A DNA stretch of 64,000 nt from assembly GCA_037130655.1 (NCBI GenBank), contig JBAXSP010000003.1, positions 4,684 to 68,683 of the forward strand. Direction: 5' to 3'. Both the position numbers and the translations under genes were made by a program. How positions within the stretch are numbered: the stretch's first letter is position 1; each line of letters starts with the position of its first letter. Below are positions 1,803-40,033 of the stretch, piece after piece. Under the pieces are notes generated by a model. The model was not told the DNA's origin, ran no database searches, and saw only the letters and a program-made list of their open reading frames with translations. The stretch comes from a bacterium (GTDB taxonomy: Bacteria; Patescibacteriota; Minisyncoccia; Phycocordibacterales; UBA9973).

Positions 1803-1806
1803 TGTC

Positions 1807-1943: not shown

Positions 1944-1952
1944 ATTTTTGCT

Positions 1953-3091: not shown

Positions 3092-3100
3092 AGGAGGAGA

Positions 3101-15163: not shown

Positions 15164-15904
15164 ATGAAATATTTTATTGGAAATTGGAAACTAAATCCAA
15201 AAACAGCGAAAGAGGCTGTTAGTTTATATAAAGCAATTGCAAAAGTAAAAAAAGCAAAAGATGTCATCGTTGCAGTCTGTGCACCGTTGCTATACCTGAA
15301 ATCACTGCAAAGTGAAAAAATTAAATCTGTCGGCATTGGAGCGCAAAATGTCTTTTATGAAAATGAAGGTGCATATACTGGGGAATGTGGACCGCTGATG
15401 CTTGAGCAATTCGGAGTGAAGTATGCACTGATAGGTCACTCTGAGGTTCGCGAACGAGGAGATACTGATGAAATCATCAATAAAAAAATCACCGCTGTTT
15501 TCAAAACAAAAATCACCCCAATTCTCTGCGTTGGAGAAAAAACACGTGACGATGCGCATTGGCATTTTCATTTCGTCAAAGAACAGTTGGTACAAAATCT
15601 TGTCGGTGTTTCAAAAAAACAAGCAAGTGGAATGTTGATTGCTTATGAGCCGGTATGGGCGATTGGTAAAAATGCCGTACGTGAAGCAACGGTGGAGGAG
15701 TGTGAAGAGATGGCGATTTTTATCCGACGAGTACTATCTGATTTGTATGATACAAAAACCGCGGAATCAGTACCGATTCTCTATGGTGGTTCGGTAAATA
15801 CAGATAACGCTCGAGCGTTCCTCGAAAGAGGGGGGATTCAAGGATTACTCATCGGACGCGCATCACTTGATAAAAAAGCTTTTGAAAAAATAATTACCTT
15901 GTAA
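15164..15904 (+). CDS. tpiA: triosephosphate isomerase
   Basis: MKYFIGNWKLN..., IGHSEVRERG, AYEPVWAIGKN, GGSV motifs. Confidence 0.9.
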   Translation: MKYFIGNWKLNPKTAKEAVSLYKAIAKVKKAKDVIVAVCAPLLYLKSLQSEKIKSVGIGAQNVFYENEGAYTGECGPLMLEQFGVKYALIGHSEVRERGDTDEIINKKITAVFKTKITPILCVGEKTRDDAHWHFHFVKEQLVQNLVGVSKKQASGMLIAYEPVWAIGKNAVREATVEECEEMAIFIRRVLSDLYDTKTAESVPILYGGSVNTDNARAFLERGGIQGLLIGRASLDKKAFEKIITL

Positions 15905-25200: not shown

Positions 25201-28200
25201 AAACATTGGAGCTCTTGATTTGAATGGTTATACACTCTCAACTGCCGAGGCAATAACTTCTATGAACGGATTAGGTTTTGGTCCTGGGGCTACTGTTGCT
25301 AATGGAAATAGTAATATGGGCGCACTTATGAATAGCTCAAATACTGCAGTGAGTTATAGTGGAGCGATTACACTTGCTGCTGCATCACGTATAAATGCTG
25401 ACTACGGAGCCCTGACAATTAGTAGTGCTATCTCTGGAGCGTTTACTTTAACTATAGGAGGATTTAGTAATACTGAACTTTCTGGAGTTATTGGCTCAGG
25501 TGCTGTTGCTATAACTAAAGATGGAATCGGGGATCTTCTTCTTTCTAATGGTAACTCATCATATACAGGTGTAACTACTGTCAGTGTCGGTACGCTTAAA
25601 ATTGGTGCCGTATCGGTTGGTGGTACAAACTCTCCACTAGGTACAGCAGGAGGTGCAACATCAATTACTGCTGGTGCTCGTCTTGATTTAAATGGATTTT
25701 CACTTGGAATAGCAGAACCTATAACAAACTTAAATGGTGTTGGGTATGGACTTGGAGATTTTGCAAGTGGTGCGATTATCAATAGCTCTGCTTCTGCGGT
25801 AACATTTACGGGGTTAATTACTCTCGGATCTGCTTCTACTATTAAAGCAAATTCTGGTGACATCAATTTAACTGCCGCGGGTACTATCACAGGATCTGGG
25901 TTTGGGTTAACTCTTGGAGGAACAGGAGTAGGAACTATTTCAAGTATTGTTGGTACCGGTGCTGGTACTGTTACAAAAATAGATACAGGAACGTGGACAC
26001 TCTCTGGTGTGAGTACTTATACCGGTGCTACAGCAATTAACCTCGGAACATTTAAGTTTGGTGTGAGTGATACTGCTGGAGGTGGACCACTCGGAACAGT
26101 TGCTGGTGCAACTACTGTATACAGTGGAGCTGTCTTGGATCTAAACGGTTTTCTCTCTAGTACTTTAGCTGAGCCACTAACTATAAACGGACGAGGAATT
26201 AGTGATGGAGGCGCGCTTATTGGAAGCAATGGAACATACACCGGTACTATAGCTTTAGCTACTGATTCTCGTATTACAAATGCTTCTGGAACAATGACGG
26301 TAACAGGAGCTGTTAGTGGTGCGTTTTTCCTTTATGTTAGTGGAGCAGGTAATGTTACTTTTAGTACGGCTATTCCTACCTCAGGTCTTTCCCTGACAAA
26401 ACAAGGAGCTGGTACATTTACCGTAACAGGTACTAATTTATATACGGGAGAAACTCGTATTGACGCAGGTACATTTGCGTATGCGGCAGGAGGGACGGCA
26501 GTTCTTGCGGGTACAAACTTAATGATGAAGGGAGGTACTTTTAACAATGCTACAAGTGTGGATACTATTGGTACGGTTACACTTGTTGGTGGAACTATTA
26601 CCAATACAGCAACAGCTTTAACAGGAACCGCTTATACACTTGAGAACGGAACAATTAGTGGAGTTATAGCTGGAGCAGTTGCTGTTACAAAAAACACAAA
26701 CAACACTGTTACTTTGTCTGGTGTGAACACTATTAGTAGTACGATAACAATTAATGCGGGAACACTTACTATTAGTGGTAGTGGTAGTGCTACATCGGTG
26801 ACTGGCGTTACTATTAACTTGGGCGGGACATTGACACTAGATAATGGTACAACTGCTGTTGCAGATAGATTAAATGGTTCTGGAGGAACAAACGCGATTG
26901 TTATTACAATGAACGGCGGAAATTTAAATTTTATCGGTAATACTTCTGGTACTTCTGCAGAAACAATGGGTCAGTTGCTATTGTCTTCAGGTCACAATAT
27001 TGTGACGGTAACTCCAGGTGCTGGTGGATCAACAACACTTACTTTTGCATCTAATCCTGGATTAAGTAGGACTGCTGGAGCAACAGTTCTCTTTCGTGGG
27101 ACAAGTTTCGGTGCTACTCCTGCAGCGAACGTTTCAACTTTGATGTTTTCTAATGCACCGACTCTCACTGGCGCAGGAGGAGCCGCAAGTTCTACAACGA
27201 TTAGTGTTATTAAGGGTGCGTATGGTGATAGTTCTCTCTCTGGAACAGGTAGTGATATGGTTACTTATAACGTAGGTAATACTAACGGCTTGCGTTTGCT
27301 TAATGGTGCTGGATTTTCTGGAGAATATGCAGGTGATTTAGCTACTGCAAATGCAAACGTAAAACTAACTGCAGATAGAGTAGCGGTAGCCACAAACACA
27401 AACTCACTTATTTTAAATGGTTTCAATATTACTAACCCAGGAGGCGCCATTACTATACCTATGTCATCTGCATCACTTGCAGGAAATATTTTAATAAACT
27501 CAGCCACAAATATCGCTGGTGCAAACACTACTCTTGGTATTACTACTTTTGAACTTAATATATTAGCTACAAACACTTCAACTATTTCTGCGATTATCGG
27601 TACAGCCACAACGGGATCAGTTACACTAAGTGGAACAGGAAATGTCACACTTAGTGCTGCAAATCTTTATACGGGTACTACATTTATAAATGGTGCAACA
27701 CTTACGGCTGGTGCAAGTAATGTTATCTCAAGTGGAGGTGTGACTATCGTGGGTGGCACATACAATCTTGCGGGTAACTCTGATACTGTCGGAGCGCTTT
27801 CTATTAACGCAGGGACTATCACAACTGGAGCGGGGACTCTGACAGGGAACGGTACATTTAGTACGGTTGCTAATAACAACGTCACTTCAATAATTACAGG
27901 GAACTTGGGTCTTGGGGCGAACGCGACATTTACCATTAATGATGGACTTATGGATAATGATGCACTGATAACAGCTGTCATTAGTGGTGCATTTACTTTT
28001 GCAAAAGCAGGTTCCGGTGTATTGGAACTTTCTGGTAGTAATACTTATTCTGGGGCACTGACTATTAGTGGAGGAACAATTCGTCTTGGTGCCACTGGTG
28101 ATGCAACTAACACACCGCTCGGTACAACAGCTGCCGGTACAACAGTATCAAGTGGGTTCTCTCTTGATTTAAACGGATATACTTTAGGTACATCAGAAGC

Positions 28201-31200
28201 ACTTACTATAAGTGGTACAGGTATTGGGGCTTTTGGAGCTCTTTTGAATACGTCTTCAACTGCGGTGACATATAGTGGACTTATTACTCTCGGAGCATCA
28301 GCTACTATAACTTCTGGTTATGGTGATATTACTTTATCAAACACAGGAAGTATGACTGGTACTGGATTTGCTTTGACTTTGAACGGTGCTGGTAACGGAT
28401 CACTCGCAACCCAAGTGAATACTTCAACTGCTGGGTCACTTGTGAAGAATGGTTCAGGTGTATGGACTATTTCAGGTGATGGTAACTATACCGGAGTAAC
28501 TACTGTTACTGCGGGTACGTTAAAACTTGGAGCAGCTGGTGGCTCAACAAACAATCCACTTGGTACAACAGGTGGAGCAACAACTGTTGCCAGTGGTGGA
28601 ATATTAGATTTGAACGGCTTTACTCCTGGGACATCTGAACCTTTGACAATAAACGGAACTGGACTTACATCAAACGCAACCGTCGGTGCACTTATAACTA
28701 GCTCTGGTAGCTCAACATCATTTAATGGTCCGCTTACTCTTGGTGCGAATGCTCGTATTGCAAACTATGGTAGTGGAGTATTTACTTTGACTGGTGCAAT
28801 TTCTGGAAACTTTGCTTTGACAACAGTAACTGTTGGTGGAATTACGCAGTCTTCTGCCAGTGTTTGGTCAGGTACTGGAACATTAATAAAAGAAGGTTCA
28901 GGTACACTGATACTAGCAGGTCAAAATACGATGAGCGGTGCCATGACAGTAAGTACTGGTGTGTTGCAACTTGGAGCAAGTGGGGGAGCTACAAATACAC
29001 CACTTGGTACAAATGCTGGAGGTGTAACTGTGTCTTCGGGTGCAGTGCTCGATCTATCTACATTTAACCTTGGCGGAGCATCAACATATGAGACATTGAA
29101 CCTAAGTGGTACAGGTATAAACAATGGTGGAGCACTCACTAGTTCGGCATCATCAGGTACCACTAACTTTGGAGCCATGACTGTTACAGCAAACTCTAGA
29201 GTGGTGAATTCTGGTGCGGGTACTATTGCTTTTACTGGTACAGTAACCATTGCAAACACTATTAACCTTGGTATTGGTGGAAGTGGACCAACAACAATTT
29301 CAGGAGCATACGGCGCAAGTGCAACTACTGCAACACTGACCAAATGGGATGCTGGGACTTTGATTTTGAGTGGTATTAATCCTGTCACAGGATTGTATCG
29401 TGTGAATGGTGGTACTTTAAAAATTAGTGATGCCAATAGTTTAGCAGTAGCACCAGTGACTGTTGCCGGGGGGACTTTTGATTTCAATGGAGTAACGGAC
29501 ACAATTGGTATTGTTAGTTTAATCAGTGGTACCGTGACAGATTCTAATGGAACTCCTGGTATTCTAAGTATTGCTACAAACTCAATTTTTGAAAGTGGTA
29601 CTGTCAGTGGTGTGCTCTCTGGTACCACACTTGCAATTGCAAAAAACACAGGAGGTACCGTTACATTTAATAAATCGAATACTTATACAGGAACAACAAC
29701 AATCAATGCTGGAACAATTCAATATTTAGCTAGTAATATTATGGCTGATACCAGTAACATTACTGTGACCGGTGGTATTTTGGATATTGGTACTAATTCT
29801 GATACTGTCGCAACTGTTACTCTTACTAGTGGAGCTATAACTGGAAGTAGTGGAATCTTAACTGGAAGTTCTTATGCTGTAACAAGTGGAACTATTAGTG
29901 CAATTTTAGCTGGTGCAGTGAACTTGACCAAAACCACAGCCGGAACCGTAACGCTTTCAGGTGTTAATACGTATACTGGAATAACAACAATAAGTGGTGG
30001 AACTTTAAGCGTTGCTACTATTGGGAATGGTGGTGCTGGTGGTAGTAATCTTGGGAATGCTTCAAACGCTGCAGCTAATATAGTATTTAATACTGGTACA
30101 GGAACACTGCAATATACTGGTGCAACAGCATCAACTGATCGTGCGTTCACGACGACCGCAGCTATCACTATGCAGTTTGATATTACTAATCCTAACACTG
30201 TACTTACTTGGGGTGGTGTTGGTACAACAACCACAGCACCATTAACTAAAATTGGACAAGGTACATTAAAATTTTCTGTAGCACAAGGGTATACTGGATT
30301 AACTACAGTACTCGCAGGAACCTTGCAATATGGTGCTTCTGATACATTATCTACGGGTGCAGTAACGGTAATTAATGGTACGTTTGATATAAATAATTTC
30401 TCTGATAGCGTTGGTATTATTACACTGCAAAATGATGGTCAGATAATAGATTCTGGTGGAACAACAGCAGTATTAACAACCACAGGAACAATGGCCGCAC
30501 AAAGCGGTACAGTAAGTGCTGTTATTGGTGGATCAACTGCTACCGGTATTACCAAGAGTACTAGCGGTAGAGTAATTCTTTCAGGAAATAATACTTTTAC
30601 CAGTACTGCGATTGCCCTAAGTGCTGGATATTTGAATCTCCGTCATAATAATGCATTGGGTGCGTCTGGTACTACACTTGCTACAACTATTACATCTGGT
30701 GCTGTTCTTGAGCTACAAAACACTATTACCTTACCAAGCACGAAGACAATCACCGCTAACGGTACTGGGGTAAATAATAGTGGTGCTGTTCGAAATATAC
30801 TTAATTCTAATGCAATTGGCGCTACGGTGACACTTGGTTCAAGTAATACACGTATTAATTCTGATAGTGGAACACTGACCGTCGCTGCAGTGTCAGGTAC
30901 CGCAACCAACCTACTTGTCGGTGGTGCTGGAGATATTGCTATCACTGGCGCGATTGCTACAACCAGTGGAACGCTTGCCAAAGATGGTGTTGGTACGTTG
31001 ACCTTAACTGGAACCAATACATATACCGGCACCACCACATTAACAGCAGGTACTACTATTGCTAATGCTACAGCTGCTCTTGGTACTGGGGCTTCTTCGA
31101 ATACACTTATTTTTAATGGGGGAACACTGAAAGCTTCAGGAACAATTACTTCTCCCTCTGCCCGTGCTGTTACACTTACTGCAACAGCTATAATTGATAC

Positions 31201-31963
31201 AAATGGTAATAGTGTTAGTTTTGCTGGTACCATGGGTTCTGCTGGAGGACTGACTAAGAATGGTTCAGGTACCTTGACGCTTACAGGAGTGACTACTCTT
31301 GGTAGTGATCTTACTATCTCTGCTGGTACCTTTGTAGCACCAACAACGCTAAATATAACTGGAGATTTTAACAACAGTGGTACATATACACACAGCAATG
31401 GGACGGTAACTTTTACTCCTGATATTACTGGAATAGTAAATTTCACTGGTAGTTCTAATACAACTTTTTATAATGCAACTGAAACTACTGCTGGCTCAAC
31501 TGTTCAATTTAAGGCAGGTAATACATATACGTTTGCCCATACCCTTACACTAACCGGTAGTAATGGAAACCCTATTTCAATAAATTCTGATACACCAAGT
31601 TCTCAATGGTTTATGACTTTATCAGGTTCTGCTTCTATTTCTTACGTAACAGTTCGAGATTCTGGCTGTAGTGGTGGTAATAATGTTTCAACAACAAGTA
31701 GTACTATATATAATTATGGTAATAATGGTTCGTGCTGGTCCTTTATAGTATTTGGTGGAGGTGGTGGTAGTAGTGAAGCGCCGGCGAGTTCACCAGATGC
31801 TCAGCAGGGCGGTGGTACCGGCGGCGGCAATGGAGGTGGTAATGATGGATCTAACACTGGCGGATCTAATGGCGGATCTAATGGCAGAGACAGTGGGGGG
31901 GATCTTGGATTTTTGTATCAAGAAAATAAATTAAATCGTTTCCGCACACTTCTCTATGTTTAA
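22214..31963 (+). CDS. giant (3249 aa) cell-surface protein built from autotransporter passenger-type beta-strand repeats (Pfam PATR family); Gly-rich C-terminus
   Basis: signal peptide; dozens of units like GTGTLTLSGANTYTG(A/T)TTINAGTL / LDLNG(Y/F)TL..(S/A)E.LT(I/L)NG.G. Confidence 0.75.
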   Translation: MNKSVTKIIKFSTIFFVVSFLFFGTTHRAEAATRTWTGTTSGAWSVASNWGGTAPVTGDDLVFPSGASNLSNTNDLTENTIFNSITFSGSGYTLSGNPIILGAGLAGITDSAASGGNTIALDVRLDVTRDIIVTNTAESLTISGRIAGVGGINKEGTGKLILSGANTFGGTLKINVGVVNARNDRALGTIAAGTEVVGGAALELQGTINIGYEALTLRGYGVSNTGALRNISNNNTFAGLITLVSAGGTEITSDSGTLTITGGMTGAFPLVIDGAGNVTFSTTPIATSTGTVTKNGVGTLTYNFPNTYTGLTTINTGTLAYGVDNAILSGAITVTGGTLDIGTYSDMVGTVTLGTLDLATGTITGTSGVLSSATYTVYNGTISAIIAGDVPGGTTQLTKSTVGTVTLTRPNQYTGAVLISLGILKIQNSTSLGTIDGATTVTAGATLQVDGSSLSVPEYITFSGTGHLYTGAIRNSTGNNTLTGLLTLGAAAMIKSDVSTTLTVDTKGLSVTTLGLSIAGDGNTTFTSSAPIYGTTATLTKDGAGTVTIQSFSNFTGTTTINGGVLNLNGSGAIPLSTTIAINAGATLTLDNSTTRVLDRIADTAAITMNGGNFNFTGSNTASTDVLETAGVLTAGIATQSGDNKITITPGSGGSSIMRFASLTRTAGSSLLFRGTSFGSTPGANISTLLFSTAPTLLGDDGAPNTPTLSIIPGAFGDSSLTGTGTDMVTYGQGNNNGLRLLNGAGFSGEYTTDLTITNANIKLTASTVASTSQINSLILSSSATITDAGSAQNITLTSGTILNLVSNATLAGANTTLTMASNVEGIIRTVSDVSLSAILATTGGVTKSGTGTLTIATAQTYTGLTSINEGTLLYGLNDSISSGNVTVNGGTFNIASFTDTVGAVILQKGTITGTSGVLTGTSYSFREGTVSAIIAGAVAVTRVATNTSSDSVVILSKNNTYSGATTITSGILKLGAAGDGINTPLGTTAGGTTIANIGALDLNGYTLSTAEAITSMNGLGFGPGATVANGNSNMGALMNSSNTAVSYSGAITLAAASRINADYGALTISSAISGAFTLTIGGFSNTELSGVIGSGAVAITKDGIGDLLLSNGNSSYTGVTTVSVGTLKIGAVSVGGTNSPLGTAGGATSITAGARLDLNGFSLGIAEPITNLNGVGYGLGDFASGAIINSSASAVTFTGLITLGSASTIKANSGDINLTAAGTITGSGFGLTLGGTGVGTISSIVGTGAGTVTKIDTGTWTLSGVSTYTGATAINLGTFKFGVSDTAGGGPLGTVAGATTVYSGAVLDLNGFLSSTLAEPLTINGRGISDGGALIGSNGTYTGTIALATDSRITNASGTMTVTGAVSGAFFLYVSGAGNVTFSTAIPTSGLSLTKQGAGTFTVTGTNLYTGETRIDAGTFAYAAGGTAVLAGTNLMMKGGTFNNATSVDTIGTVTLVGGTITNTATALTGTAYTLENGTISGVIAGAVAVTKNTNNTVTLSGVNTISSTITINAGTLTISGSGSATSVTGVTINLGGTLTLDNGTTAVADRLNGSGGTNAIVITMNGGNLNFIGNTSGTSAETMGQLLLSSGHNIVTVTPGAGGSTTLTFASNPGLSRTAGATVLFRGTSFGATPAANVSTLMFSNAPTLTGAGGAASSTTISVIKGAYGDSSLSGTGSDMVTYNVGNTNGLRLLNGAGFSGEYAGDLATANANVKLTADRVAVATNTNSLILNGFNITNPGGAITIPMSSASLAGNILINSATNIAGANTTLGITTFELNILATNTSTISAIIGTATTGSVTLSGTGNVTLSAANLYTGTTFINGATLTAGASNVISSGGVTIVGGTYNLAGNSDTVGALSINAGTITTGAGTLTGNGTFSTVANNNVTSIITGNLGLGANATFTINDGLMDNDALITAVISGAFTFAKAGSGVLELSGSNTYSGALTISGGTIRLGATGDATNTPLGTTAAGTTVSSGFSLDLNGYTLGTSEALTISGTGIGAFGALLNTSSTAVTYSGLITLGASATITSGYGDITLSNTGSMTGTGFALTLNGAGNGSLATQVNTSTAGSLVKNGSGVWTISGDGNYTGVTTVTAGTLKLGAAGGSTNNPLGTTGGATTVASGGILDLNGFTPGTSEPLTINGTGLTSNATVGALITSSGSSTSFNGPLTLGANARIANYGSGVFTLTGAISGNFALTTVTVGGITQSSASVWSGTGTLIKEGSGTLILAGQNTMSGAMTVSTGVLQLGASGGATNTPLGTNAGGVTVSSGAVLDLSTFNLGGASTYETLNLSGTGINNGGALTSSASSGTTNFGAMTVTANSRVVNSGAGTIAFTGTVTIANTINLGIGGSGPTTISGAYGASATTATLTKWDAGTLILSGINPVTGLYRVNGGTLKISDANSLAVAPVTVAGGTFDFNGVTDTIGIVSLISGTVTDSNGTPGILSIATNSIFESGTVSGVLSGTTLAIAKNTGGTVTFNKSNTYTGTTTINAGTIQYLASNIMADTSNITVTGGILDIGTNSDTVATVTLTSGAITGSSGILTGSSYAVTSGTISAILAGAVNLTKTTAGTVTLSGVNTYTGITTISGGTLSVATIGNGGAGGSNLGNASNAAANIVFNTGTGTLQYTGATASTDRAFTTTAAITMQFDITNPNTVLTWGGVGTTTTAPLTKIGQGTLKFSVAQGYTGLTTVLAGTLQYGASDTLSTGAVTVINGTFDINNFSDSVGIITLQNDGQIIDSGGTTAVLTTTGTMAAQSGTVSAVIGGSTATGITKSTSGRVILSGNNTFTSTAIALSAGYLNLRHNNALGASGTTLATTITSGAVLELQNTITLPSTKTITANGTGVNNSGAVRNILNSNAIGATVTLGSSNTRINSDSGTLTVAAVSGTATNLLVGGAGDIAITGAIATTSGTLAKDGVGTLTLTGTNTYTGTTTLTAGTTIANATAALGTGASSNTLIFNGGTLKASGTITSPSARAVTLTATAIIDTNGNSVSFAGTMGSAGGLTKNGSGTLTLTGVTTLGSDLTISAGTFVAPTTLNITGDFNNSGTYTHSNGTVTFTPDITGIVNFTGSSNTTFYNATETTAGSTVQFKAGNTYTFAHTLTLTGSNGNPISINSDTPSSQWFMTLSGSASISYVTVRDSGCSGGNNVSTTSSTIYNYGNNGSCWSFIVFGGGGGSSEAPASSPDAQQGGGTGGGNGGGNDGSNTGGSNGGSNGRDSGGDLGFLYQENKLNRFRTLLYV

Positions 31964-32043
31964 TAGTGGTATATTTGATTGCATCATGATAACTATTTGA
32001 TATAATGGTTTTATCAATAATTATTTATTAATATAGTACTTTT

Positions 32044-32469
32044 ATGGAAAACATCATTAAACAAAAATTTTCGAAAATTGCCTTATATGTTGTGCTAGTT
32101 ATCGCTGTTGTATTTGCTGTTTATTTTTATATTCAACTATATACACTTAAGAAAAATCCTCAAGCAATTTCACAAAAAGAAACAAGTGAACTGGTTTCAA
32201 AGGTTGGTAAATTGGTTTTTTTACCTAAAGATGAAGTCCCAACTATCGCTACCGTAACCGACCCTAATTTATTAAAAGAGCAGCCATTTTTTGTTAATGC
32301 TCAAAAAGGGGATAAGGTGTTGATCTATGCTCAATCAAAAAAAGCTATTTTGTATAGCGTTAGTTTGAATAAAGTTATTGATGTGGCACCACTAAATATC
32401 GGATCAAGTACAAAAACATCTACACCAACACCTACTCAAGAAACAACAGATACACCTGTAAAAAAATAA
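32044..32469 (+). CDS. small bitopic membrane protein, hypothetical
   Basis: TM IALYVVLVIAVVFAVYFYI; Thr/Pro-rich C-terminus. Confidence 0.4.
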   Translation: MENIIKQKFSKIALYVVLVIAVVFAVYFYIQLYTLKKNPQAISQKETSELVSKVGKLVFLPKDEVPTIATVTDPNLLKEQPFFVNAQKGDKVLIYAQSKKAILYSVSLNKVIDVAPLNIGSSTKTSTPTPTQETTDTPVKK

Positions 32470-32511
32470 TATTGATGACAGTGCTTCATTCTGATATACT
32501 TTGATGTATCA

Positions 32512-33825
32512 ATGAACTTGTTTAGAAAAAAACACCATTTTAAAATAAGAACTAATGGAATTATTTCAATTAATTATTCCATTGTAATTATTTTTTCTTT
32601 GGTGTTTTTTTCTTTTTTTACTAATGTTTCATTTGTTTGGGCTCAAGATGTATTTACAAGCCCTGTTTTTACAAATTCATTAAACAATCAATCAAATGTA
32701 CAAATGTATATATCACCTAGAAATGGTAACTTTGTTACCGGTTCTATATTAGAAGTAGGTGTATACATAGATACAAAAAAAAATAGTATCAATACTGTTG
32801 ACCTAAAGGTTAATTTTGATCCAAAAAAATTAGCAGTAGCAAATCCTTCCGGTGGAAAATCTATATTTGATATTTGGGTAGAACCACCAACTTATGATAA
32901 TACAAAGGGTTTAATAACTATGAGCGGCATAATACCAGAAGGAATTGTTACTACCTCTGGACTTATCGCTAAAATGTCATTTAAAGTTCTTTCTGCTGGT
33001 TCGAGCACAATAACAATTAATAATGCTACAAATGTATATTTAAATGATGGCGCGGGAACAAAAGCAAACGTTTCTTTTGGTAGAGCTGAATTAGAATTTA
33101 CTAACCAGATTCCTGATGGGGTTGTAATACATTCAGACACGCATCCTTTTGAAGATAATTGGTATAATAATAACAATCCTATTTTTAGCTGGGATGATAA
33201 AAAAGATTCCAATGGGTATGCGACACTACTAGACAGTAATCCAAAAACAGTGCCTACAAATGAAATCACCACAAATAAGAACAACATGTCGTATACTGAC
33301 ATTGGTGATGGTACTTGGTACATGCATGTTAAGTCAAAAGAAGATCAAAGTTGGGGAAATACATCAAATTATAAAATTAATATAGATACTACTCCGCCAA
33401 AAAAATTTACTCCAACAATCAATACAATAACAGGCGATGGAAGGGATGAATACGTGTTAATGTTTGGTACAACGGATGATTTATCAGGTATCGATCATTA
33501 TGAAGTTGGTATATTAAAAAATAATCGCGACAAAAATACACTTCCTGTATTTATTCAAACAGAAAGTCCATACGTGTTACCTGTTGATAATAAAGAAAAC
33601 ATTAAAATTATAGTTAAAGCTTTTGATGTTGCTGGAAATGTAACAGAAGGATCAACGAGTTTGTACCCAAATAATAAAAATTGGTACATAGCTGGTTTGT
33701 TCTTTTTGATTTTGATACTACTTGTGTCGCACTATGTATTTGGACACCATGTCGGTCGCAATATTAAACGCGCGTATATTTTCTTTAAGAATATTTCTAA
33801 AAAAGATGAAAACAATCAATTTTAA
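32512..33825 (+). CDS. cohesin-domain type I membrane protein (cohesin protein 1)
   Basis: signal peptide; cohesin-like NGNFVTGSILEVGVYIDTKKNSINTVDLKVNFDPKKLAVANP...YDNTKG...LNDGAGT; second-ectodomain motif SGIDHYEVG..ESPYV..AFDVAGN; C-terminal TM plus basic tail. Confidence 0.6.
   Translation: MNLFRKKHHFKIRTNGIISINYSIVIIFSLVFFSFFTNVSFVWAQDVFTSPVFTNSLNNQSNVQMYISPRNGNFVTGSILEVGVYIDTKKNSINTVDLKVNFDPKKLAVANPSGGKSIFDIWVEPPTYDNTKGLITMSGIIPEGIVTTSGLIAKMSFKVLSAGSSTITINNATNVYLNDGAGTKANVSFGRAELEFTNQIPDGVVIHSDTHPFEDNWYNNNNPIFSWDDKKDSNGYATLLDSNPKTVPTNEITTNKNNMSYTDIGDGTWYMHVKSKEDQSWGNTSNYKINIDTTPPKKFTPTINTITGDGRDEYVLMFGTTDDLSGIDHYEVGILKNNRDKNTLPVFIQTESPYVLPVDNKENIKIIVKAFDVAGNVTEGSTSLYPNNKNWYIAGLFFLILILLVSHYVFGHHVGRNIKRAYIFFKNISKKDENNQF
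32538..32616 (+). repeat. 79-bp direct repeat copy 1 (encodes leader FKIRTNGIISINYSIVIIFSLVFFSF)
   Basis: 78/79 identical to 33820-33898. Confidence 0.85.
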
Positions 33826-35185
33826 AATAAGAACTAATAGAATTATTTCAATTAATTATTCCATTGTAATTATTTTTTCTTTGGTGTTTTTTTCTTTTGC
33901 TTCTGCAGATTTTACAAGTACAAGTTATGAATTAGAAAATCCATCAACAGCTGTTATTGGGGGAGGGCAATCTTCGTCTGCTAGTTTCCAATATCTCTCA
34001 AATACTGGACAACTAAACGGAGGGCAAAGCACAAGTACTTCTTTTACTCAAAATGCTGGGTTTCTTTATTTCCCCTCAGCTACTTCACCAATTGTTTCTG
34101 CAACAGCAGGTAGTACACAAGTATCGCTTACATGGACAGCATCAACAGGAATTTTTGCAAGTGTTACAAGTTATGAGGTCGGGGTGAGTACTGCTTCTAG
34201 TGGGACATATACGTATACAAATGTTGGAAATGTCTTAAGTTCAATTAAAACTGGCCTTACCAATAATACGCCATATTTTTTTAAGATACGCACCTATGCT
34301 GCAGGAATTTTATTAACAGAATCTGCCGTTGTAAGTGCGACTCCTGTTGCGAGTAGTTCAAGCTCAAGCTCAAGTTCTGGTTCAGGTGGCAGTTCTGCTG
34401 GTTCAAGTGGTAGTGTCGGATCATTTAGTATTCCTAGTTCAGTAGACGCAACAGTAAATTTTACTGGACGAGCATATCCAAATAGTTCGGTCACACTCTT
34501 AAAAGATGCGCAAATTATTGCAACTACAGTTGCAGGTTCTGATGCAAGTTTTAGTATGCAATTGAATAATTTGTCTGTGGGGACATATGTTTTTAGTGTG
34601 TATTCTACAGACAAAGATGATGTACGTTCACCACTGCAGTCTTTCCCTATAACAGTAACAGCCGGTGTCACTGTCAACGTCGGTGGAATATTTATTGCAC
34701 CAACTATTTCCGGAGATAAATCACAGGTCAAACAAGGAGATAATATTACTTTTTTTGGACAAGCGGTTCCTCAAAGTGAAGTTACAATAGCGATTCATTC
34801 TAATCAAGAAATTTTCAAAAAAATTCAAACTGATAAAAATGGAGTATATTTACAAACCGTAGATACTTCGCCACTTGAAATAGGTGGACACAGCGCAAAA
34901 TCAAAAGTTGCATTTGATGGACAAATTAGTGCATACAGTGCCGGGTATAATTTTATAGTTGGTAATGATAATATAGAAACAGATAAGAATACAAAAAAAA
35001 TAAATAAAGGAGATTTAAACGGAGATAATAAAGTGAATCTTATTGACTTTTCTATCGCGGCTTTTTGGTACAAAAAAACAAACCTTAGTGATCAAATGAA
35101 AAACTATGAAAAAACAAGACTCAATGGCGATGGTAAAATTGATATCATTGACTTTAGTATCATGGCTTATTATTGGACTGGATAA
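33806..35185 (+). CDS. secreted FN3 / Ser-rich linker / Ig-like protein with C-terminal dockerin
   Basis: ATG 33806 chosen (ORF-track 33722 overlaps upstream gene by 100 nt); FN3-like VSLTWTAS...YFFKIRTYAAG; poly-Ser; duplicated Ca-loop DLNGDNKVNLIDFSIAAFWY / RLNGDGKIDIIDFSIMAYYW at 35005-35182. Confidence 0.6.
   Translation: MKTINFKIRTNRIISINYSIVIIFSLVFFSFASADFTSTSYELENPSTAVIGGGQSSSASFQYLSNTGQLNGGQSTSTSFTQNAGFLYFPSATSPIVSATAGSTQVSLTWTASTGIFASVTSYEVGVSTASSGTYTYTNVGNVLSSIKTGLTNNTPYFFKIRTYAAGILLTESAVVSATPVASSSSSSSSSGSGGSSAGSSGSVGSFSIPSSVDATVNFTGRAYPNSSVTLLKDAQIIATTVAGSDASFSMQLNNLSVGTYVFSVYSTDKDDVRSPLQSFPITVTAGVTVNVGGIFIAPTISGDKSQVKQGDNITFFGQAVPQSEVTIAIHSNQEIFKKIQTDKNGVYLQTVDTSPLEIGGHSAKSKVAFDGQISAYSAGYNFIVGNDNIETDKNTKKINKGDLNGDNKVNLIDFSIAAFWYKKTNLSDQMKNYEKTRLNGDGKIDIIDFSIMAYYWTG
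33820..33898 (+). repeat. 79-bp direct repeat copy 2 (leader of dockerin protein)
   Basis: 78/79 identical to 32538-32616. Confidence 0.85.
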
Positions 35186-35188
35186 CAT

Positions 35189-36052
35189 ATGAAAAATTTA
35201 AAAATAACTACAATAATCTCATTTTTCATTCTCTTTTGCTGGGGAAGTTTTGCGCACGCTTCAACATTAGAAGTTGTTGTTAATAAGCAAAAAGTTCCAG
35301 TAAATGGTTTCTTGACCGCAACTATTATTCTTGATGCTGAAAATAACCCAATAAACACAATAGAAGGAACAGTTATATACGATAGCGGTTATTTGATACC
35401 TGAAAAAATTAGTATAGGAAATTCTTTTATAAGTTTTTGGATAGATAAACCTGTTATAAAAAACAACGGGATGATTCATTTTTCTGGAATCGTTCCTGGA
35501 GGAGTTGCTGTTTCAAAAGGTGAAGTTTTTTCTGTTTCTTTTAAAGCTTCACACAAAGGAGACGTGAGTTTATCTCTTCAAGATGTCAATCTTCTTTTAA
35601 ATGACGGACAAGGCACAAAAGATAAGACGAATGTTATCGATACCGCTATTAGTATTATCGATTCAACTGGTATTACCGATAATGAGCAAGTATCATCGGA
35701 CGATAAAAAAGAACCAGAAGATTTTTCAATTATTCGTACTCGAAATAGCGCTATATTTGATAATAAGTATTTTATTGTCTTTAGTACTCAAGATAAAGAG
35801 TCTGGTATTGATCATTATGAAATATGTGAATTTTTTGAAAAGAATTGTATTGTCGGTGAGAGTCCATATGAATTAAAACATCAAACTTTTTTGTACCGTA
35901 TTTTTGTAAAAGCGTATGATGCAGAAGGTAACGTCCGCAAAGAAGTGATTGTTTCACCGTGGTTAATTTTTGTATTTGTTATTTTTTTACTCGCGCTTTT
36001 GTTTGGTGTAGTAACATTCTATCGTCGATTTATTGCATATAATAAGTTATAA
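35189..36052 (+). CDS. cohesin-domain type I membrane protein (cohesin protein 2, short)
   Basis: signal peptide; cohesin-like core ...IEGTVIYDSGYLIPEKISIGNSFISFWIDKPVIKNNGMIHFSGIVPGG...LNDGQGT; SGIDHYEI motif; C-terminal TM. Confidence 0.55.
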   Translation: MKNLKITTIISFFILFCWGSFAHASTLEVVVNKQKVPVNGFLTATIILDAENNPINTIEGTVIYDSGYLIPEKISIGNSFISFWIDKPVIKNNGMIHFSGIVPGGVAVSKGEVFSVSFKASHKGDVSLSLQDVNLLLNDGQGTKDKTNVIDTAISIIDSTGITDNEQVSSDDKKEPEDFSIIRTRNSAIFDNKYFIVFSTQDKESGIDHYEICEFFEKNCIVGESPYELKHQTFLYRIFVKAYDAEGNVRKEVIVSPWLIFVFVIFLLALLFGVVTFYRRFIAYNKL

Positions 36053-36059
36053 TATTTTT

Positions 36060-37529
36060 ATGCAAAAAAAAGTTTCAGTAAAAAAAAGTAAAAAAATATT
36101 TCAAATACTTTTTTTTGCATTTATTTTTTTACTTACATGCTCTGTTCAAAAAGTTAGTGCTGCAAAATTAGATGTGATACCTACTTTTGGTTCTGTTCAC
36201 GTGGGGGACAGTGTTAAGGTTCGTGTTGTTTTGTCGAGTGCAGATCAATCTGCAAATGCTGTTTCTAGTATTATTTCTTTTTCCAACGATGTTCTTACGT
36301 TAAATTCAATTTCAAAATCAGATTCTATAATCAGCCTTTGGCCCGTTGAACCATCATACTCAAATACAAAAGGTACTGTTTCTATAGAAGGGGTGATATT
36401 AAATGGATATAAAGGTTCAAATGGTGTAGTTATAACATTGTTTTTTAAGGCAAAAAATGAAGGAACTGCTTATATTAAGTTTGCTAATGCTTCTGTTCTT
36501 GCTAATGATGGGCAAGGAACACAAATACTTAAAACAACAGGTGATACACAATTTGATATAGATGCTATTACTGAGAAGAAGGAAGTCAGTTCTCCAAAAA
36601 ACACACCAATTGTTGCCGATGATGAAAACCCAACAGTTCAAATAGATGAAATAAAAAAGAAAGATGAATTAGATCCTCGGTCTAAATTTTTCATTACGAG
36701 TGTTGCTAAAAAAAACAACACTTCATATAAAATAGAAATAGATAATGTGCCTTATGTTTGGGACGACACAGGCGATCATCTTTTTGAAACAATACCACTT
36801 TCGAAAGGCATGCACACAATAAAAGTGTCCATTGAAACAATTGATGGAGACAGTATTTCTAAAACTCTTTCTTTTAACAATACAGGAATAACCAGTCCAA
36901 TTTTTACTGACTACTCTAATTCAGTGAATGAAGATGAGTATATTGTCGTCAAAGGTAAGGCTGACCCACTTACTTACGTGGTAATTAGTTATGATGCAAT
37001 AGACACAGAAGGTAAAACAAAACACGAATCTTCTACTGTTAAGTCAGACAAAGAAGGTCTGTTTACGTATGTTTCTGAAAATAGATTATCAAAAGGTGTG
37101 TATATGATTTCAGCAATAGCCAGAACTGATTCAGGTATAGAAAGTGAAAAGACTGCAACGATAAGAATAGTAGTTCAAGAAAACATAAAAGGTGTTTTTG
37201 ATAAATTCACTAATTTTTTCTACTTCGCAATACCTGTTATAGGATTATTGATATTAGTTCTTATTCTCATAATATATGGATGGCACTATTTGTTGCATTA
37301 CCGAAATCGTATGCATAAAAAACTTCACGACGCCAAGCTAATTATCAATAAAAGCTTTTCTATTCTAGAAGAAGACCTTGATGAAGAGATTAAAATCTTC
37401 AAAAAAATAAAATCAACACAACCTTTGTCTGAAGATGAGAGATCTTTCATTAATCAATTCAAAAAGGATATAGAAGCAGCAGAACGTACTATTGTAAATG
37501 AAATAAAAGACTCAGATAAAGATATATAA
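36060..37529 (+). CDS. cohesin-domain type I membrane protein (cohesin protein 3) with ~90-aa charged cytoplasmic tail
   Basis: ORF-track 36033 is TTG; ATG at 36060; cohesin-like ...VKVRVVLSS..ISFSNDVLTLNSI...WPVEPSYSNTKGT...LANDGQGT; TM near residue 390. Confidence 0.55.
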   Translation: MQKKVSVKKSKKIFQILFFAFIFLLTCSVQKVSAAKLDVIPTFGSVHVGDSVKVRVVLSSADQSANAVSSIISFSNDVLTLNSISKSDSIISLWPVEPSYSNTKGTVSIEGVILNGYKGSNGVVITLFFKAKNEGTAYIKFANASVLANDGQGTQILKTTGDTQFDIDAITEKKEVSSPKNTPIVADDENPTVQIDEIKKKDELDPRSKFFITSVAKKNNTSYKIEIDNVPYVWDDTGDHLFETIPLSKGMHTIKVSIETIDGDSISKTLSFNNTGITSPIFTDYSNSVNEDEYIVVKGKADPLTYVVISYDAIDTEGKTKHESSTVKSDKEGLFTYVSENRLSKGVYMISAIARTDSGIESEKTATIRIVVQENIKGVFDKFTNFFYFAIPVIGLLILVLILIIYGWHYLLHYRNRMHKKLHDAKLIINKSFSILEEDLDEEIKIFKKIKSTQPLSEDERSFINQFKKDIEAAERTIVNEIKDSDKDI

Positions 37530-37533
37530 TTAT

Positions 37534-38847
37534 ATGTTTATTACACTTACAAAAAAATATATTTCAATACTGTTGTTAATTTGTTTTTATTTTTCAACTG
37601 CTTCAGCTGGAGAAATGATAAATTTGGATGCTTCAAATTTGGTTGCTCGTTCAGAAATAACAGTTACGCCGAATCAGGCGAGTTTTATAGAGGGCTCTAT
37701 TTTTGATGTGCCTGTTGTGATAAATACAAAAGGAAGGAGTATCAATGCCATTGATTTAAAAATAAACTTTGATCCCAAAAGACTAAGTATTATAAGGCCA
37801 TCAACAGGTAAATCAATTATTGGATTATGGATACAACCACCCTCGTATGACAATACGAAAGGAGTAGTAAGTATTGTAGGTAGTATTCCTGGTGGTATCA
37901 TCTCAGACGCAAGTATCATTAGCACGCTAACATTTCAAGCAAAGGCAACAGGGGTTGCAGAAGTAAGAATAAATGATAGTTCATCAGTACTCGCTAATGA
38001 TGGAGTTGGAACAACAGTTATTTTAAGTTCCAACAGAGGTATATATACCATTCTCCCGAAACCTCCAAGTGGCTTGAATGTATATTCAGATACACATCAA
38101 TTTCAAGATCATTGGTACAACAACAATAGTCCTACTTTTTCTTGGAACAAAGATCCTGGTGTGATTGGTTTTAGTTATATCCTCGACGACAAACCAAATA
38201 CAATACCTGATAACAAAAATAGTACAACTGAATCAGTAAAATCATATGAGAATATATCAGACGGTTTGATGTATTTTCATATCAAAGCATTAAAAGATAA
38301 AAATACATGGGGAAGCACAACACATTATTTATTACGAATTGATACAAAGCCACCAGCTCTGTTTACTCCAAAAGTTGATTATATTATTAATGATGATGGC
38401 ACAAAACGTGCGCTTGTGAGTTTTTTTACATCAGATAATATGTCAGGTATTGACCATTATGAAGTTGGGGTTATTGAAAAAAATCAACCAACAACAGTCA
38501 CTCCTATTTTTGTTAGAACAGAAAGTCCCTATGAAGTACCAAGTGCATCAATAGATGGATCTGTTGTTGTTGTCAGGGCGTATGATTTGGCTGGCAACAG
38601 TGTCGATTCAAAAATTACTCTTCATATGCCCGGAAAACTGCTTTATTGGATTGAGGGTCACGCAACAATACTTTTATTAATTCTTTTGTTGTTAGTGGTT
38701 GCATTTGCGACAACTCACTACTTGTTGGGTCATAAAATTCTAAAAAGAATTAGATTGATTTCTCGTCTTTTGAATAAAAATGATACTGAAAATACACAAG
38801 AATTTTCAAAAGAGGTGAGTTCTATTGAATCAATCAAGGATATATAG
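37534..38847 (+). CDS. cohesin-domain type I membrane protein (cohesin protein 4); full-length paralog of the 32512 gene
   Basis: EGSIFDVPVVINTKGRSINAIDLKINFDPKRLSII...YDNTKGV...LANDGVGT; SGIDHYEVG..ESPYE..AYDLAGN; C-terminal TM. Confidence 0.6.
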   Translation: MFITLTKKYISILLLICFYFSTASAGEMINLDASNLVARSEITVTPNQASFIEGSIFDVPVVINTKGRSINAIDLKINFDPKRLSIIRPSTGKSIIGLWIQPPSYDNTKGVVSIVGSIPGGIISDASIISTLTFQAKATGVAEVRINDSSSVLANDGVGTTVILSSNRGIYTILPKPPSGLNVYSDTHQFQDHWYNNNSPTFSWNKDPGVIGFSYILDDKPNTIPDNKNSTTESVKSYENISDGLMYFHIKALKDKNTWGSTTHYLLRIDTKPPALFTPKVDYIINDDGTKRALVSFFTSDNMSGIDHYEVGVIEKNQPTTVTPIFVRTESPYEVPSASIDGSVVVVRAYDLAGNSVDSKITLHMPGKLLYWIEGHATILLLILLLLVVAFATTHYLLGHKILKRIRLISRLLNKNDTENTQEFSKEVSSIESIKDI

Positions 38848-38852
38848 CACAA

Positions 38853-38888
38853 TAAAAAAAACACTCTCAACACAAGAGTGTTTTTTTA
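38853..38888 (+). terminator. rho-independent terminator after cohesin operon
   Basis: AAAAAAAACACTCT caacaca AGAGTGTTTTTTTAT. Confidence 0.75.
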
Positions 38889-38917
38889 TGCAGTAAATAA
38901 TTGCTATACTGATAAGT

Positions 38918-40033
38918 ATGAAATCAATCAAAGAATGTAAAGACTTGAAAGGAAAGACCGTATTTGTACGAGTAGATTATAATGTCCCGCTGAAAGATGG
39001 AAAAGTGCTGGATGGTTTTCGTATTGACGCATCACTTGCAACAATCAATTTTTTGGTCAAGAAAAAAGCCAAAGTTGTCTTGCTTACGCATATTGGTGAG
39101 GACGGATCAGGAACCTTGATGCCAGTTGCAAAATATTTGAAACGAAAAATTGCGGTGACATTTTGTCCGGCAAAAGAATTGCATGATATAGAACAAGCAG
39201 TTACTAAACTTGCGGCCGGAGAAGTATTACTCCTTGAAAACATCCGACAGTTTGATGGTGAAAAAACAAATGACAAAGCACTCGCAAAAGCTTTTGCTTC
39301 TATGGGGGATATCTTTGTGAATGATGCATTTTCTGTCTCACATCGAAAACACATGAGTGTTGTAGGACTCGCAATGAAATTGCCGTCATATGCAGGTTTT
39401 GCATTGGAACAAGAAGTGAAAACACTTTCACAGGCACTCAAACCAAAACATCCATTCGTGTTTATTTTGGGTGGAGCGAAATTTGATACGAAGTTACCAC
39501 TTTTGAAAAAATACAGTACTAGTAGCGATGTGTTGTTTGTTGGTGGAGCATTGGCAAACAATGTGCTCAAAGAAAAAGGCTATGAAGTAGGCAAGTCTGT
39601 GGTTGATGATACAACCGTCAAAACAAAGTCATTATGGAATAAAAAGAATTTCCTCACACCAATTGACGTCGTAGTGCTACGTGGTAATGAAGCTAAAAAT
39701 GTCGATGTGTCAGAAGTTTTGGAAGGGGATACGATCGTAGACATTGGAAAAGAAACAATCAAACTACTGACACCGGTATTTGCCAAAGCAAAATTGGTTG
39801 TCTGGAATGGTCCGCTTGGTTGGTATGAAAAAGGCTTCGTAAAAGCCACAAAAGATCTGCTCGGAGTAATTAATAAATCAAAAGCACAAGTAATTATCGG
39901 AGGAGGAGATACTGCCTTTTTAGCTCACAAAATGAAGCTTACAAATAAGGTCTTTATTTCAACTGGTGGAGGTGCGACGCTCGATTTCTTGGCAAATGGC
40001 ACATTACCTGGTATTTCGGTTTTGTCGAAATAA
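38918..40033 (+). CDS. pgk: phosphoglycerate kinase
   Basis: N-terminal VRVDYNVPLKDGKV..DGFRIDASLATINFL; 371 aa; PGK hinge and C-domain motifs. Confidence 0.9.
   Translation: MKSIKECKDLKGKTVFVRVDYNVPLKDGKVLDGFRIDASLATINFLVKKKAKVVLLTHIGEDGSGTLMPVAKYLKRKIAVTFCPAKELHDIEQAVTKLAAGEVLLLENIRQFDGEKTNDKALAKAFASMGDIFVNDAFSVSHRKHMSVVGLAMKLPSYAGFALEQEVKTLSQALKPKHPFVFILGGAKFDTKLPLLKKYSTSSDVLFVGGALANNVLKEKGYEVGKSVVDDTTVKTKSLWNKKNFLTPIDVVVLRGNEAKNVDVSEVLEGDTIVDIGKETIKLLTPVFAKAKLVVWNGPLGWYEKGFVKATKDLLGVINKSKAQVIIGGGDTAFLAHKMKLTNKVFISTGGGATLDFLANGTLPGISVLSK

Follow-up and report, generated by a model that had tools for sequence, protein, structure and literature searches.

A conserved operon of transmembrane cohesins and a dockerin protein in Parcubacteria/Paceibacteria-type bacteria, probably a surface-assembly or attachment device

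What might a tiny-genome bacterium from the candidate phyla radiation (CPR) do with a set of cohesins and a dockerin when no carbohydrate-active enzyme for them to assemble is found among the scanned genes nearby? The question is raised by a 64,000-nucleotide stretch of contig JBAXSP010000003.1 (GenBank assembly GCA_037130655.1, positions 4,684 to 68,683 of the forward strand; herein referred to as the window), assigned to the Minisyncoccia within the Patescibacteriota, in which five genes (g1 to g5; table 1) had been predicted from the sequence to form a surface operon of four membrane-anchored cohesin proteins around a single dockerin protein. Both domains and architecture support the cohesin-dockerin reading. 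In the explanation that best accounts for the locus, in which we place reasonable though far from complete confidence, a CPR bacterium of the Parcubacteria/Paceibacteria type carries a non-enzymatic cohesin-dockerin module at its surface. The operon is probably a conserved surface-assembly or attachment device, and the module most likely forms part of the base of a surface or adhesion apparatus and not of a polysaccharide-degrading complex.

The cohesins are most readily recognized in g5, the best conserved of them, and g1, which match the Pfam Cohesin family (PF00963) at 36.7 and 32.2 bits, respectively (the latter over residues 76-178), with a cut-off of 24.1. Neither g3 nor g4 has a direct Pfam Cohesin match itself, and few of their orthologues reach the family at E<=0.01 (6 of 42 for g3 and 5 of 44 for g4, vs 29 of 31 in the g5 family). 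The N-terminal domains of g3 and g4 match those of g1 and g5 in BLASTP searches (E 1e-9 to 1e-18; E 2.5e-18 for g4 and g5), and alignment of family profiles with hhalign joins the g3 family to the g5 family with a probability of 100% (E 7.5e-42, spanning the cohesin and a downstream domain termed domC) and the g4 family to the g5 family with a probability of 99.8% (E 2.5e-30). Profile searches of the PDB returned cohesins for the g5 family (5g5d_A, 4uyp_A) and the ScaB cohesin of R. flavefaciens for the g3 family (5aoz_A, E 0.0013), and related the middle region of g4 to the BIg domains of SiiE (2yn3_A, E 1e-5). The remaining member, g1, also matches hidden Markov models (HMMs) built from orthologues for the cohesin, for domB (a further downstream domain) and for domC, and is 38% identical to g5 over 385 residues.

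The AlphaFold2 (AF2) model of g5 has a mean predicted local distance difference test (pLDDT) score of 85.3, rising to 90-96 over residues 40-170, and comprises a beta-sandwich at residues ~39-174, whose roughly nine strands follow the expected order, then domB and domC, both all-beta, and the transmembrane helix. In Foldseek searches the whole model found its best match in the cohesin-FN3 (fibronectin type III) module of GH84C from C. perfringens (2w1n, E 4.6e-11), and its target-normalised template modelling (TM) scores were 0.72-0.77 to the solved cohesins 6kgc, 4dh2, 1g1k, 2xdh and 2vo8, which include type-I cohesins (from C. acetobutylicum, C. cellulolyticum and the OlpA and OlpC proteins of C. 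thermocellum) and non-cellulosomal ones (from A. fulgidus and C. perfringens); type-II cohesins fit the model more poorly (0.48-0.60). The jelly-roll fold that the original prediction expected was thus recovered for the protein on which it was checked, and the nine-stranded cohesin fold, as modelled for g5, is predicted by homology for g1, g3 and g4.

By a simple hydropathy scan with a threshold for N-terminal segments, g1, g3, g4 and g5 each have a single C-terminal transmembrane helix (near residues 393-414 in g1, at 259-277 in g3 and at 387-405 in g4), followed by a basic tail of 23, 10, 84 and 40 residues, respectively. An N-terminal hydrophobic signal segment is clear in g1, g2 and g4 and falls below the threshold in g3 and g5, whose leaders were judged by eye, such that the predicted plan of signal peptide, transmembrane helix and basic tail holds for all four cohesin proteins at the C-terminus and unambiguously for g1 and g4 at the N-terminus. 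Between these elements, g1 carries its cohesin (residues ~62-193), domB and domC; g3 a divergent cohesin (residues 24-157, window positions 35258-35659) and domC; g4 a divergent cohesin (residues 33-170, 36156-36569) and an immunoglobulin-like (Ig-like) middle region, with a charged cytoplasmic tail; and g5 its cohesin (residues 38-172, 37645-38049), domB (175-275) and domC (276-368). The Ig-like stalks, at whose outer ends the topology places the cohesins, differ in length: g3 has two ectodomains, and g4 and g5 have three or more.

The cohesin consensus given in the original prediction proved too strict, since its VPV element occurs in g5 alone. Of its other elements, NDGxGT is present in all four proteins; YDNTKG is found in g1 and g5, as the variant YSNTKG in g4, and is missing from g3; and NFDP is confined to g1 and g5. 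A second ectodomain motif claimed for three of the proteins (SGIDHYE, ESPY and A[YF]DxxGN) is indeed common to g1, g3 and g5. The motifs common to all of the cohesin paralogues (xINAx[DE], W..P, a G-rich strand 6 and L.NDGxGT) map to strands 3, 5, 6 and the end of strand 8 of the g5 model, where strands are numbered by their order in the AF2 model with no superposition behind the numbering. The dockerin-binding face of solved type-I complexes is the 8-3-6-5 sheet, and Ca-dependent dockerin binding by the cohesins of the operon through this sheet is putative.

Several further features of these proteins were observed. No confident Pfam model covers domB (motif THPFQD.WYNNN.P..SW) or domC (SGIDHYE...ESPY...A.D.AGN), and both recur as tandem repeats in metagenomic giant proteins such as P0241 (4269 residues), with up to 31 matched stretches. 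The g4 tail (37270-37529) is charged and predicted to be helical over its 84 residues, with a consensus that can be recovered across orthologues (alignment A4), and g4 and g5 (tail at 38725-38847) both terminate in KDI in this genome.

The putative partner of the cohesins, g2, is a secreted protein in which a signal peptide and a conserved N-terminal motif region are followed by an FN3 domain, a poly-Ser/Gly linker and a pair of Ig-like domains, and which ends in a dockerin; the hydropathy scan gives it no C-terminal transmembrane helix. This is the FN3/poly-Ser/Ig/dockerin protein that had been predicted, and it is borne out by Pfam, by PDB profiles and by the AF2 model (mean pLDDT 78.7, the Ser/Gly linker being of low confidence). 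Pfam Dockerin_1 (PF00404) matches residues 401-454 at 26.0 bits (cut-off 22.9), and the fn3 and Big_6 scores fall just short (24.5 with a cut-off of 25, and 26.7 with a cut-off of 27.6). The Pfam matches that the prediction had called for accordingly reach their cut-offs for Cohesin in g1 and g5 and for Dockerin_1 in g2, but not for fn3, nor directly for the cohesins of g3 and g4. In PDB searches the g2 family profile matches FN3 domains (E 7e-9 to 3e-6) and the dockerins 2y3n_B (E 1.3e-4) and 5nrm_B (E 5e-4). Foldseek matches to the whole g2 model are dominated by tandem FN3/Ig structures, among which the 60-residue dockerin does not surface, and the identification of the dockerin is therefore based on Pfam, the PDB profile matches and the modelled helices. 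Searched for on its own, the dockerin brought back no more than 12 short fragments, which give no picture of other proteins with this dockerin subtype.

The two dockerin segments quoted in the original prediction, DLNGDNKVNLIDFSIAAFWY (residues 403-422) and RLNGDGKIDIIDFSIMAYYW (residues 438-457), read exactly as quoted, and AF2 places helices at residues 412-421, 429-438 (a linker helix) and 447-458 with pLDDT 82-91, in agreement with the paired Ca-loop and helix units that had been expected. Loop 1 (D403-L-N405-G-D407-N-K-V-N411-L-I-D414) retains all five ligands at positions that hardly vary, if at all, across 59 species, and loop 2 (R438-L-N440-G-D442-G-K-I-D446-I-I-D449) retains four of five, with Arg at position 1, which is variable among orthologues; the proposed type-I duplication stands in its two loop-and-helix segments and departs from the canonical form at this one ligand. 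The dockerin is also the most conserved part of g2: mean pairwise identity is 77% and 76% in the two segments, compared with 44-56% in the other domains and 28% in the linker between the segments, and the helices DFSIAA[FY]WY and DFSIMA[YF][YN]WTG are almost invariant across the 59 species. In type-I dockerins, the mutual resemblance of the two segments is the feature that enables dual-mode binding. As a separate observation, many g2 orthologues carry a Cys pair in and before the first Ca loop (alignment A2, around residues 397-410 of the g2 of the window) in one of two patterns, ..KKCP.KGDLN.DC.. or ..KCDLNEDGRCN.., neither of which is present in the g2 of the window; the pairing suggests a disulfide bond.

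At the other end of g2, the motifs F[ST]S.N[FY].[VL]..P, SSS.SF.L and S.S.SF..N.GFLYFP contain invariant or near-invariant columns, and AF2 assigns residues 33-87 a pLDDT below 50 and no confident fold despite this conservation. An HMM of the region finds g2 as its sole match in the window, and the motif is confined to g2-type proteins, for which reason we rejected the idea that it is a general sorting signal. In a few related loci (L025, L032 and L055) the motif region is encoded on a separate open reading frame (ORF) from the one that bears the dockerin.

Whether these proteins form a unit can be judged from their inheritance. In the window the five genes are co-directional, as predicted, and the spacers, anticipated to lie between -20 and +8 nucleotides, are -20, +3, +7 and +4 for g1/g2, g2/g3, g3/g4 and g4/g5. 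A promoter and terminator scan of positions 31800-39100 gave counts no higher than chance, and the operon boundaries are consequently drawn from gene spacing alone. Searching 1.84 billion representatives clustered at 50% identity with the g5-family profile yielded 2120 matches at E<=1e-30 and 7328 at E<=1e-10, a count that includes domB/domC tandem repeats within giant proteins. In a scan with a single genome for each species, relatives turned up in at least 168 genomes, and 84 loci were fetched, 80 of which are non-redundant at the species level. The loci are nearly all labelled Patescibacteria/Parcubacteria (Nomurabacteria, Zambryskibacteria, Taylorbacteria, Paceibacterota, Minisyncoccia), the exceptions in label being two short contigs (L022, Nitrospira; L041, Gottesmanbacteria).

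Across these loci the gene order is fixed: a giant ORF, a g0-like small protein in one to four copies, g2, g3, g4 and g5, with the variant g2-g5-g3-g4 in a few loci. The g3, g4 and g5 set is present in 63 of the 80 non-redundant loci, and co-inheritance with the dockerin gene is strict, g2 lying directly upstream in all 50 of the g3-g4-g5 loci whose upstream DNA extends for 1.6 kb or more. Of the 84 fetched loci, 59 have exactly three cohesin ORFs, with one cohesin per ORF, and a single dockerin ORF. The five-gene unit as first described was not what recurred in related genomes: the conserved unit is g0, g2, g3, g4 and g5 downstream of a giant surface protein, and a gene at the g1 position was found only in the window and its closest relative (L005). 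Judged by sequence, g1 is a lineage-specific extra paralogue of the g5 type. The signal-peptide coding parts of g1 (32537-32616) and g2 (33819-33898) are identical at 79 of 80 nucleotides (98.75%, blastn), and the two N-termini share 72% identity over 40 residues, the remainder of the two genes being unrelated; this repeat, which is not present in L005, looks like the product of gene conversion in the recent past, or else the junction of a duplication that inserted g1.

Such a broad distribution could also fit a purely structural role, in which g2 would be an abundant surface-layer-like subunit tethered by the cohesin proteins in the service of envelope integrity and not of adhesion. Occurrence in at least 168 species-level genomes suits a housekeeping function of the envelope; g2 has only FN3/Ig stalk domains and no recognisable ligand-binding head, and its low-confidence N-terminal region is what would be expected of a sequence that folds upon self-assembly. 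However, Pfam detected no surface-layer or SLH-type domain, type IV pilus genes and genes for giant adhesin-like proteins lie nearby, and the g3-g4-g5 set is missing from 17 of the 80 loci (some with lone g5-type genes, some cut by contig ends). We regard this structural lattice as improbable, and it departs from the favoured explanation in the downstream role only.

In the favoured explanation g3, g4 and g5 (and g1 in this lineage) are paralogous type-I membrane proteins. One C-terminal helix anchors each in the cytoplasmic membrane, and one or two Ig-like domains serve as the stalk for its single type-I-like cohesin, distal to the membrane. We hypothesize that the dockerin of g2 plugs into one or more of these cohesins in a Ca-dependent manner; this would tether g2 to the cell surface non-covalently, the Ig/FN3 stalk and the conserved region at the N-terminus facing outward; in some lineages further dockerin proteins would be held likewise at the membrane surface. 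Together with g0 and the upstream giant secreted protein, the module would work as the anchoring or assembly base of a surface or adhesion apparatus, through which the cell might attach to a host or substrate. We infer that the cohesin proteins hold g2 at the membrane surface because the cohesins face outward, the dockerin is the only recognisable attachment module of g2 and its most conserved part, and the motifs shared by the cohesins fall on the strands of the binding sheet. A cohesin partner within the operon is likewise the simplest explanation for a dockerin that is the most conserved part of its protein and always encoded beside cohesins.

A number of observations weigh against this proposal. 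Simple one-to-one pairing does not account for the constant proportion of three cohesins to a single dockerin. Mutual information across 59 paired operons singled out no cohesin, the cohesin columns scoring no higher than control domains and the dockerin helices being near-invariant, and it is therefore uninformative as to the partner. The cohesins of g3 and g4 are divergent, as their orthologues' Pfam scores attest, and the second Ca site of the dockerin may be weakened, given the Arg at its first ligand position and the variability of that position in orthologues. In about 12 loci a g5-type gene stands alone, the nearest 10 kb being free of any dockerin, and the adhesion role is read from genomic context only. 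The lone g5-type loci (including L012, L013, L028, L031, L037, L042, L044 and L074) lie in different, partly shared contexts; they may be second copies in operon-bearing genomes or cohesins working without g2, and their existence means that the g5 type of cohesin may also work without an adjoining g2.

The fixed ratio and the lack of covariation toward a cohesin-dockerin interface also speak for an alternative in which g0, g3, g4 and g5 form a heteromeric envelope complex that serves mainly to export, assemble or anchor the giant surface protein, the cohesin folds acting as general beta-sandwich interaction modules that bind each other or the conserved C-terminal region of the giant, and the dockerin of g2 binding some other target (such as Ca2+ together with a host or envelope glycan) or one cohesin only. 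The gene neighbourhood lends this alternative substance. Most loci with upstream DNA have a giant ORF ahead of the operon, and g0 is co-inherited: 34 of 45 loci carry its orthologues, in one to four tandem copies, directly 5' of the dockerin gene. The product of g0 has an N-terminal transmembrane helix (residues 12-30), a conserved extracytoplasmic domain of ~85 residues (motif LP.GE.PT.ATV.DP..LK.QPFF..A..GDKVL in alignment A6) and a Thr/Pro-rich tail, and profile searches of Pfam and PDB found no credible relative for it. The conserved ~84-residue cytoplasmic tail of g4 further suggests a role beyond passive anchoring.

The giants themselves bear on the same alternative from both sides. Two regions of the 1716-residue secreted repeat protein encoded in the window (residues 1402-1488 and 1517-1715) recur, by phmmer, in the giant upstream ORFs of ~20 loci, and since these C-terminal ~300 residues are common to giants directly upstream of the operon elsewhere, the 1716-residue protein is a likely functional partner of the operon; its C-terminus (20199-21230) has a sub-cut-off H_lectin match (E 0.0068) and may be a carbohydrate-binding or anchoring module. 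In the window the slot directly upstream of g0 is held by a 3249-residue protein with 15 stretches of Pfam PATR (autotransporter-passenger type, E 1.3e-46), whose homologues lie upstream of the operon in four other loci (L025, L084, L055 and L052). The upstream giants thus belong to at least two unrelated families, and some loci have no detected giant upstream. Orthologue-built HMMs detected no dockerin in the 3249-residue giant, and neither a dockerin-like nor any other recognisable docking module was found in the giants of the window. Set beside the conservation of the dockerin next to its cohesins, for which a partner in the operon is simpler, these points lead us to consider the envelope complex a doubtful alternative, though the main one.

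An extension of the cohesin-dockerin module is put forward tentatively, as a possibility well short of an expectation: the fixed set of three membrane cohesins, the symmetrical dockerin protein and g0 could constitute the conserved mechanical base of a Paceibacteria attachment organelle, in which g2, and the neighbouring giant adhesin by way of the conserved, unstructured N-terminus of g2, would be held on the surface of the episymbiont by force-resistant cohesin-dockerin bonds and the conserved cytoplasmic helix of g4 would couple attachment to the cell interior. If true, this would put the cohesin-dockerin principle to a new biological use that involves no enzymes, and would open a genetic route to understanding how a large part of the CPR stays attached to hosts.

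A further alternative is a true cellulosome-like system, in which enzymes that degrade polysaccharides or peptides, encoded elsewhere in the genome, would bear dockerins and be anchored by the cohesins. Cohesin and dockerin proteins expressed from a Shapirobacterales genome, also of the CPR, have been interpreted in this way (10.1101/2021.08.21.457207), and the view of the genome here spans 64 kb. One related locus moreover encodes other dockerin proteins beside the operon: in L024 (Patescibacteria; positions 3-6416, + strand) the giant slot is occupied by three proteins of 552, 755 and 847 residues, each ending in a canonical Dockerin_1 domain (35-37 bits) of a subtype unlike that of g2. Since these are encoded directly upstream of the operon, the cohesin set can be associated with more than one dockerin-bearing protein. 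The three proteins have no other recognisable domain, catalytic or otherwise, and it is a non-catalytic FN3/Ig protein that bears the one conserved dockerin. Across the window, orthologue-derived HMMs locate exactly four cohesins, each on a protein of its own, and a single dockerin, and related loci likewise have a single cohesin per protein and no multi-cohesin scaffoldin. No glycoside hydrolase, carbohydrate-binding module (CBM) or other carbohydrate-active enzyme (CAZyme) domain was detected in any scanned ORF of the window. The prediction of a non-cellulosomal system with no catalytic domain in or beside the operon agrees with every one of these observations, and we reject the cellulosome reading, which we consider very improbable, on architecture and on the lack of CAZymes among the scanned ORFs.

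Among known systems, the closest in logic to the favoured module are the anchoring scaffoldins of cellulosomes (OlpA, OlpC and SdbA of C. thermocellum, ScaE of R. flavefaciens), in which a cell-bound protein displays one or a few cohesins to hold a dockerin partner, and the cohesin of the g5 model matches those of OlpC and OlpA (4dh2, 3ul4) at TM scores of 0.72-0.74. Those scaffoldins are attached to the Firmicutes wall by SLH domains or sortase and carry enzyme-loaded scaffoldins, whereas the operon employs a C-terminal transmembrane helix, a non-catalytic FN3/Ig cargo and no enzymes or CBMs, in a CPR host. Structurally the operon is nearest to the non-cellulosomal cohesins of C. perfringens and A. 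fulgidus. Outside cellulose degradation, the cohesin-FN3 module of C. perfringens GH84C (2w1n) and the GH33 cohesin (2vo8, TM score 0.77) likewise have a cohesin followed by FN3/Ig-type domains. Cohesin and dockerin in C. perfringens, as Adams and colleagues reportedly described in 2008, both reside on secreted enzymes and join these together; the cohesins of the operon are, by contrast, membrane-anchored and enzyme-free, and form a fixed set of three paralogues beside their putative partner. The non-cellulosomal cohesin of Archaeoglobus fulgidus (2xdh, TM score 0.76 to the g5 model) represents the stand-alone modules of non-cellulolytic prokaryotes. The survey by Peer and colleagues from 2009 is said to have catalogued scattered modules of this kind; it predates CPR genomes and reportedly contains no conserved operon of three transmembrane cohesins and one dockerin.

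Two further comparisons are by architecture or description and not by homology. Animal TMEM132 proteins comprise a cohesin, three BIG Ig domains, a transmembrane helix and a cytoplasmic tail and have been proposed to be adhesion molecules (PMC6030884); g5 and g4 share this plan of cohesin, Ig domains, single-pass helix and tail, with a likeness in architecture only, TMEM132 being a eukaryotic family with no known dockerin partner. Dockerins have also been mentioned in ultra-small, host-dependent, non-cellulolytic bacteria: the saccharibacterium Southlakia epibionticum has an essential dockerin protein, SEML1_0315 (PMC10633639), and Omnitrophota have giant dockerin-repeat ORFs (PMC10066038), with adhesion speculated upon in both cases. 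Neither report describes cohesins that go with the dockerins, nor a conserved operon like the one described here. Together with the expressed Shapirobacterales proteins, they are the passing mentions to which, in the literature found, cohesin and dockerin genes of CPR and other ultra-small bacteria are confined. Our full-text literature searches surfaced no paper pairing cohesin with Parcubacteria and none pairing dockerin with Parcubacteria, Paceibacteria, Nomurabacteria or Minisyncoccia, and a paper on highly expressed surface proteins in cultured Paceibacteria does not mention cohesin. The view that the arrangement was undescribed therefore holds for the operon, on which no paper was found, and not for its domains, since NCBI already names the products 'cohesin domain-containing protein' and 'dockerin type I domain-containing protein'. 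What is new is the conserved operon, which in many Parcubacteria/Paceibacteria genomes combines a fixed set of three transmembrane cohesins with one dockerin protein and g0, next to a gene for a giant protein.

To our knowledge, how most CPR/Patescibacteria attach to hosts or surfaces is unexplained beyond a few cultured Saccharibacteria, in which type IV pili have been implicated. In Parcubacteria/Paceibacteria, few multi-gene surface modules are both conserved and made of parts whose biochemical logic is well understood; the operon is one of them, and because its cohesins and dockerin are in addition small, soluble and expressible, it is directly testable. If the pairing holds, the cohesin-dockerin principle reaches from enzyme assembly to enzyme-free anchoring through transmembrane cohesins, and the operon offers a marker and a target for studies of contact between CPR bacteria and their hosts. 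Metagenome pipelines that read cohesin and dockerin genes as evidence of cellulose degradation would then also need correction, since such genes are common in CPR genomes that have no cellulose-degrading capacity.

Table 1. Coordinates of the operon genes, the parts of g2, the giant surface proteins and the bordering genes (positions in the window)
Feature	Position	Strand	Description
g0	32044..32469	+	141 aa (amino acids), small bitopic protein; part of conserved operon
g1	32512-33825	+	437 aa, transmembrane-anchored cohesin protein
g2	33806-35185	+	459 aa counted from ATG; secreted dockerin protein
g2 N-terminal motif region	33893-34081, aa 30-92	+	conserved columns in alignments A2 and A5
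g2 FN3	34082-34351, aa 93-182	+	Pfam fn3 at aa 100-177; PDB profile matches titin, ChiA1 and other FN3; modelled at aa 90-180, pLDDT ~90
g2 tandem Ig-like domains	34442-34969, aa 213-388	+	Pfam Big_6 at aa 217-278; two all-beta domains, modelled at aa 215-386, pLDDT 85-95
g2 dockerin	35006-35182, aa 401-459	+	two Ca-loop and helix segments, 403-424 and 438-459; variable linker between
g3	35189-36052	+	287 aa, short transmembrane-anchored cohesin protein
g4	36060-37529	+	489 aa, transmembrane-anchored cohesin protein
g5	37534-38847	+	437 aa, transmembrane-anchored cohesin protein
1716-aa secreted repeat protein	16083-21233	+	C-terminal ~300 aa common to giants upstream of operon elsewhere
3249-aa secreted PATR-repeat protein	22214-31963	+	directly upstream of g0; holds giant slot
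tpiA	15164-15904		left border of surface-protein block
pgk	38918-40033		right border of surface-protein block

In the wider neighbourhood, surface-protein genes fill a 22.8-kb block (16083-38847) between tpiA and pgk, and genes for PilB (8800), PilC (10556) and pilin-like proteins lie upstream of the operon, which is consistent with the predicted 23-kb adhesin island near type IV pilus genes. The tpiA and pgk genes, both glycolytic, often adjoin in bacteria. Neither was seen in the flanks of related loci, which rules out the pair as a conserved insertion site and makes the placement of the operon between them specific to the lineage of the window. GC content is 0.30-0.34 in the cohesin operon vs 0.39-0.42 in the giant genes, and an origin from a mobile element or phage is unsupported, the flanking genes being housekeeping genes. 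On the 5' side of the type IV pilus genes, positions 3537-6617 (+) encode a secreted protein of 1026 residues that has no Pfam match and carries the repeated motif AWSDNIGWISFN. The sole minus-strand gene within the surface-protein block (21280-22077) encodes a 265-residue protein in which an N-terminal extension of ~150 residues, of no assigned type, precedes a C-terminal HSP20/alpha-crystallin domain.

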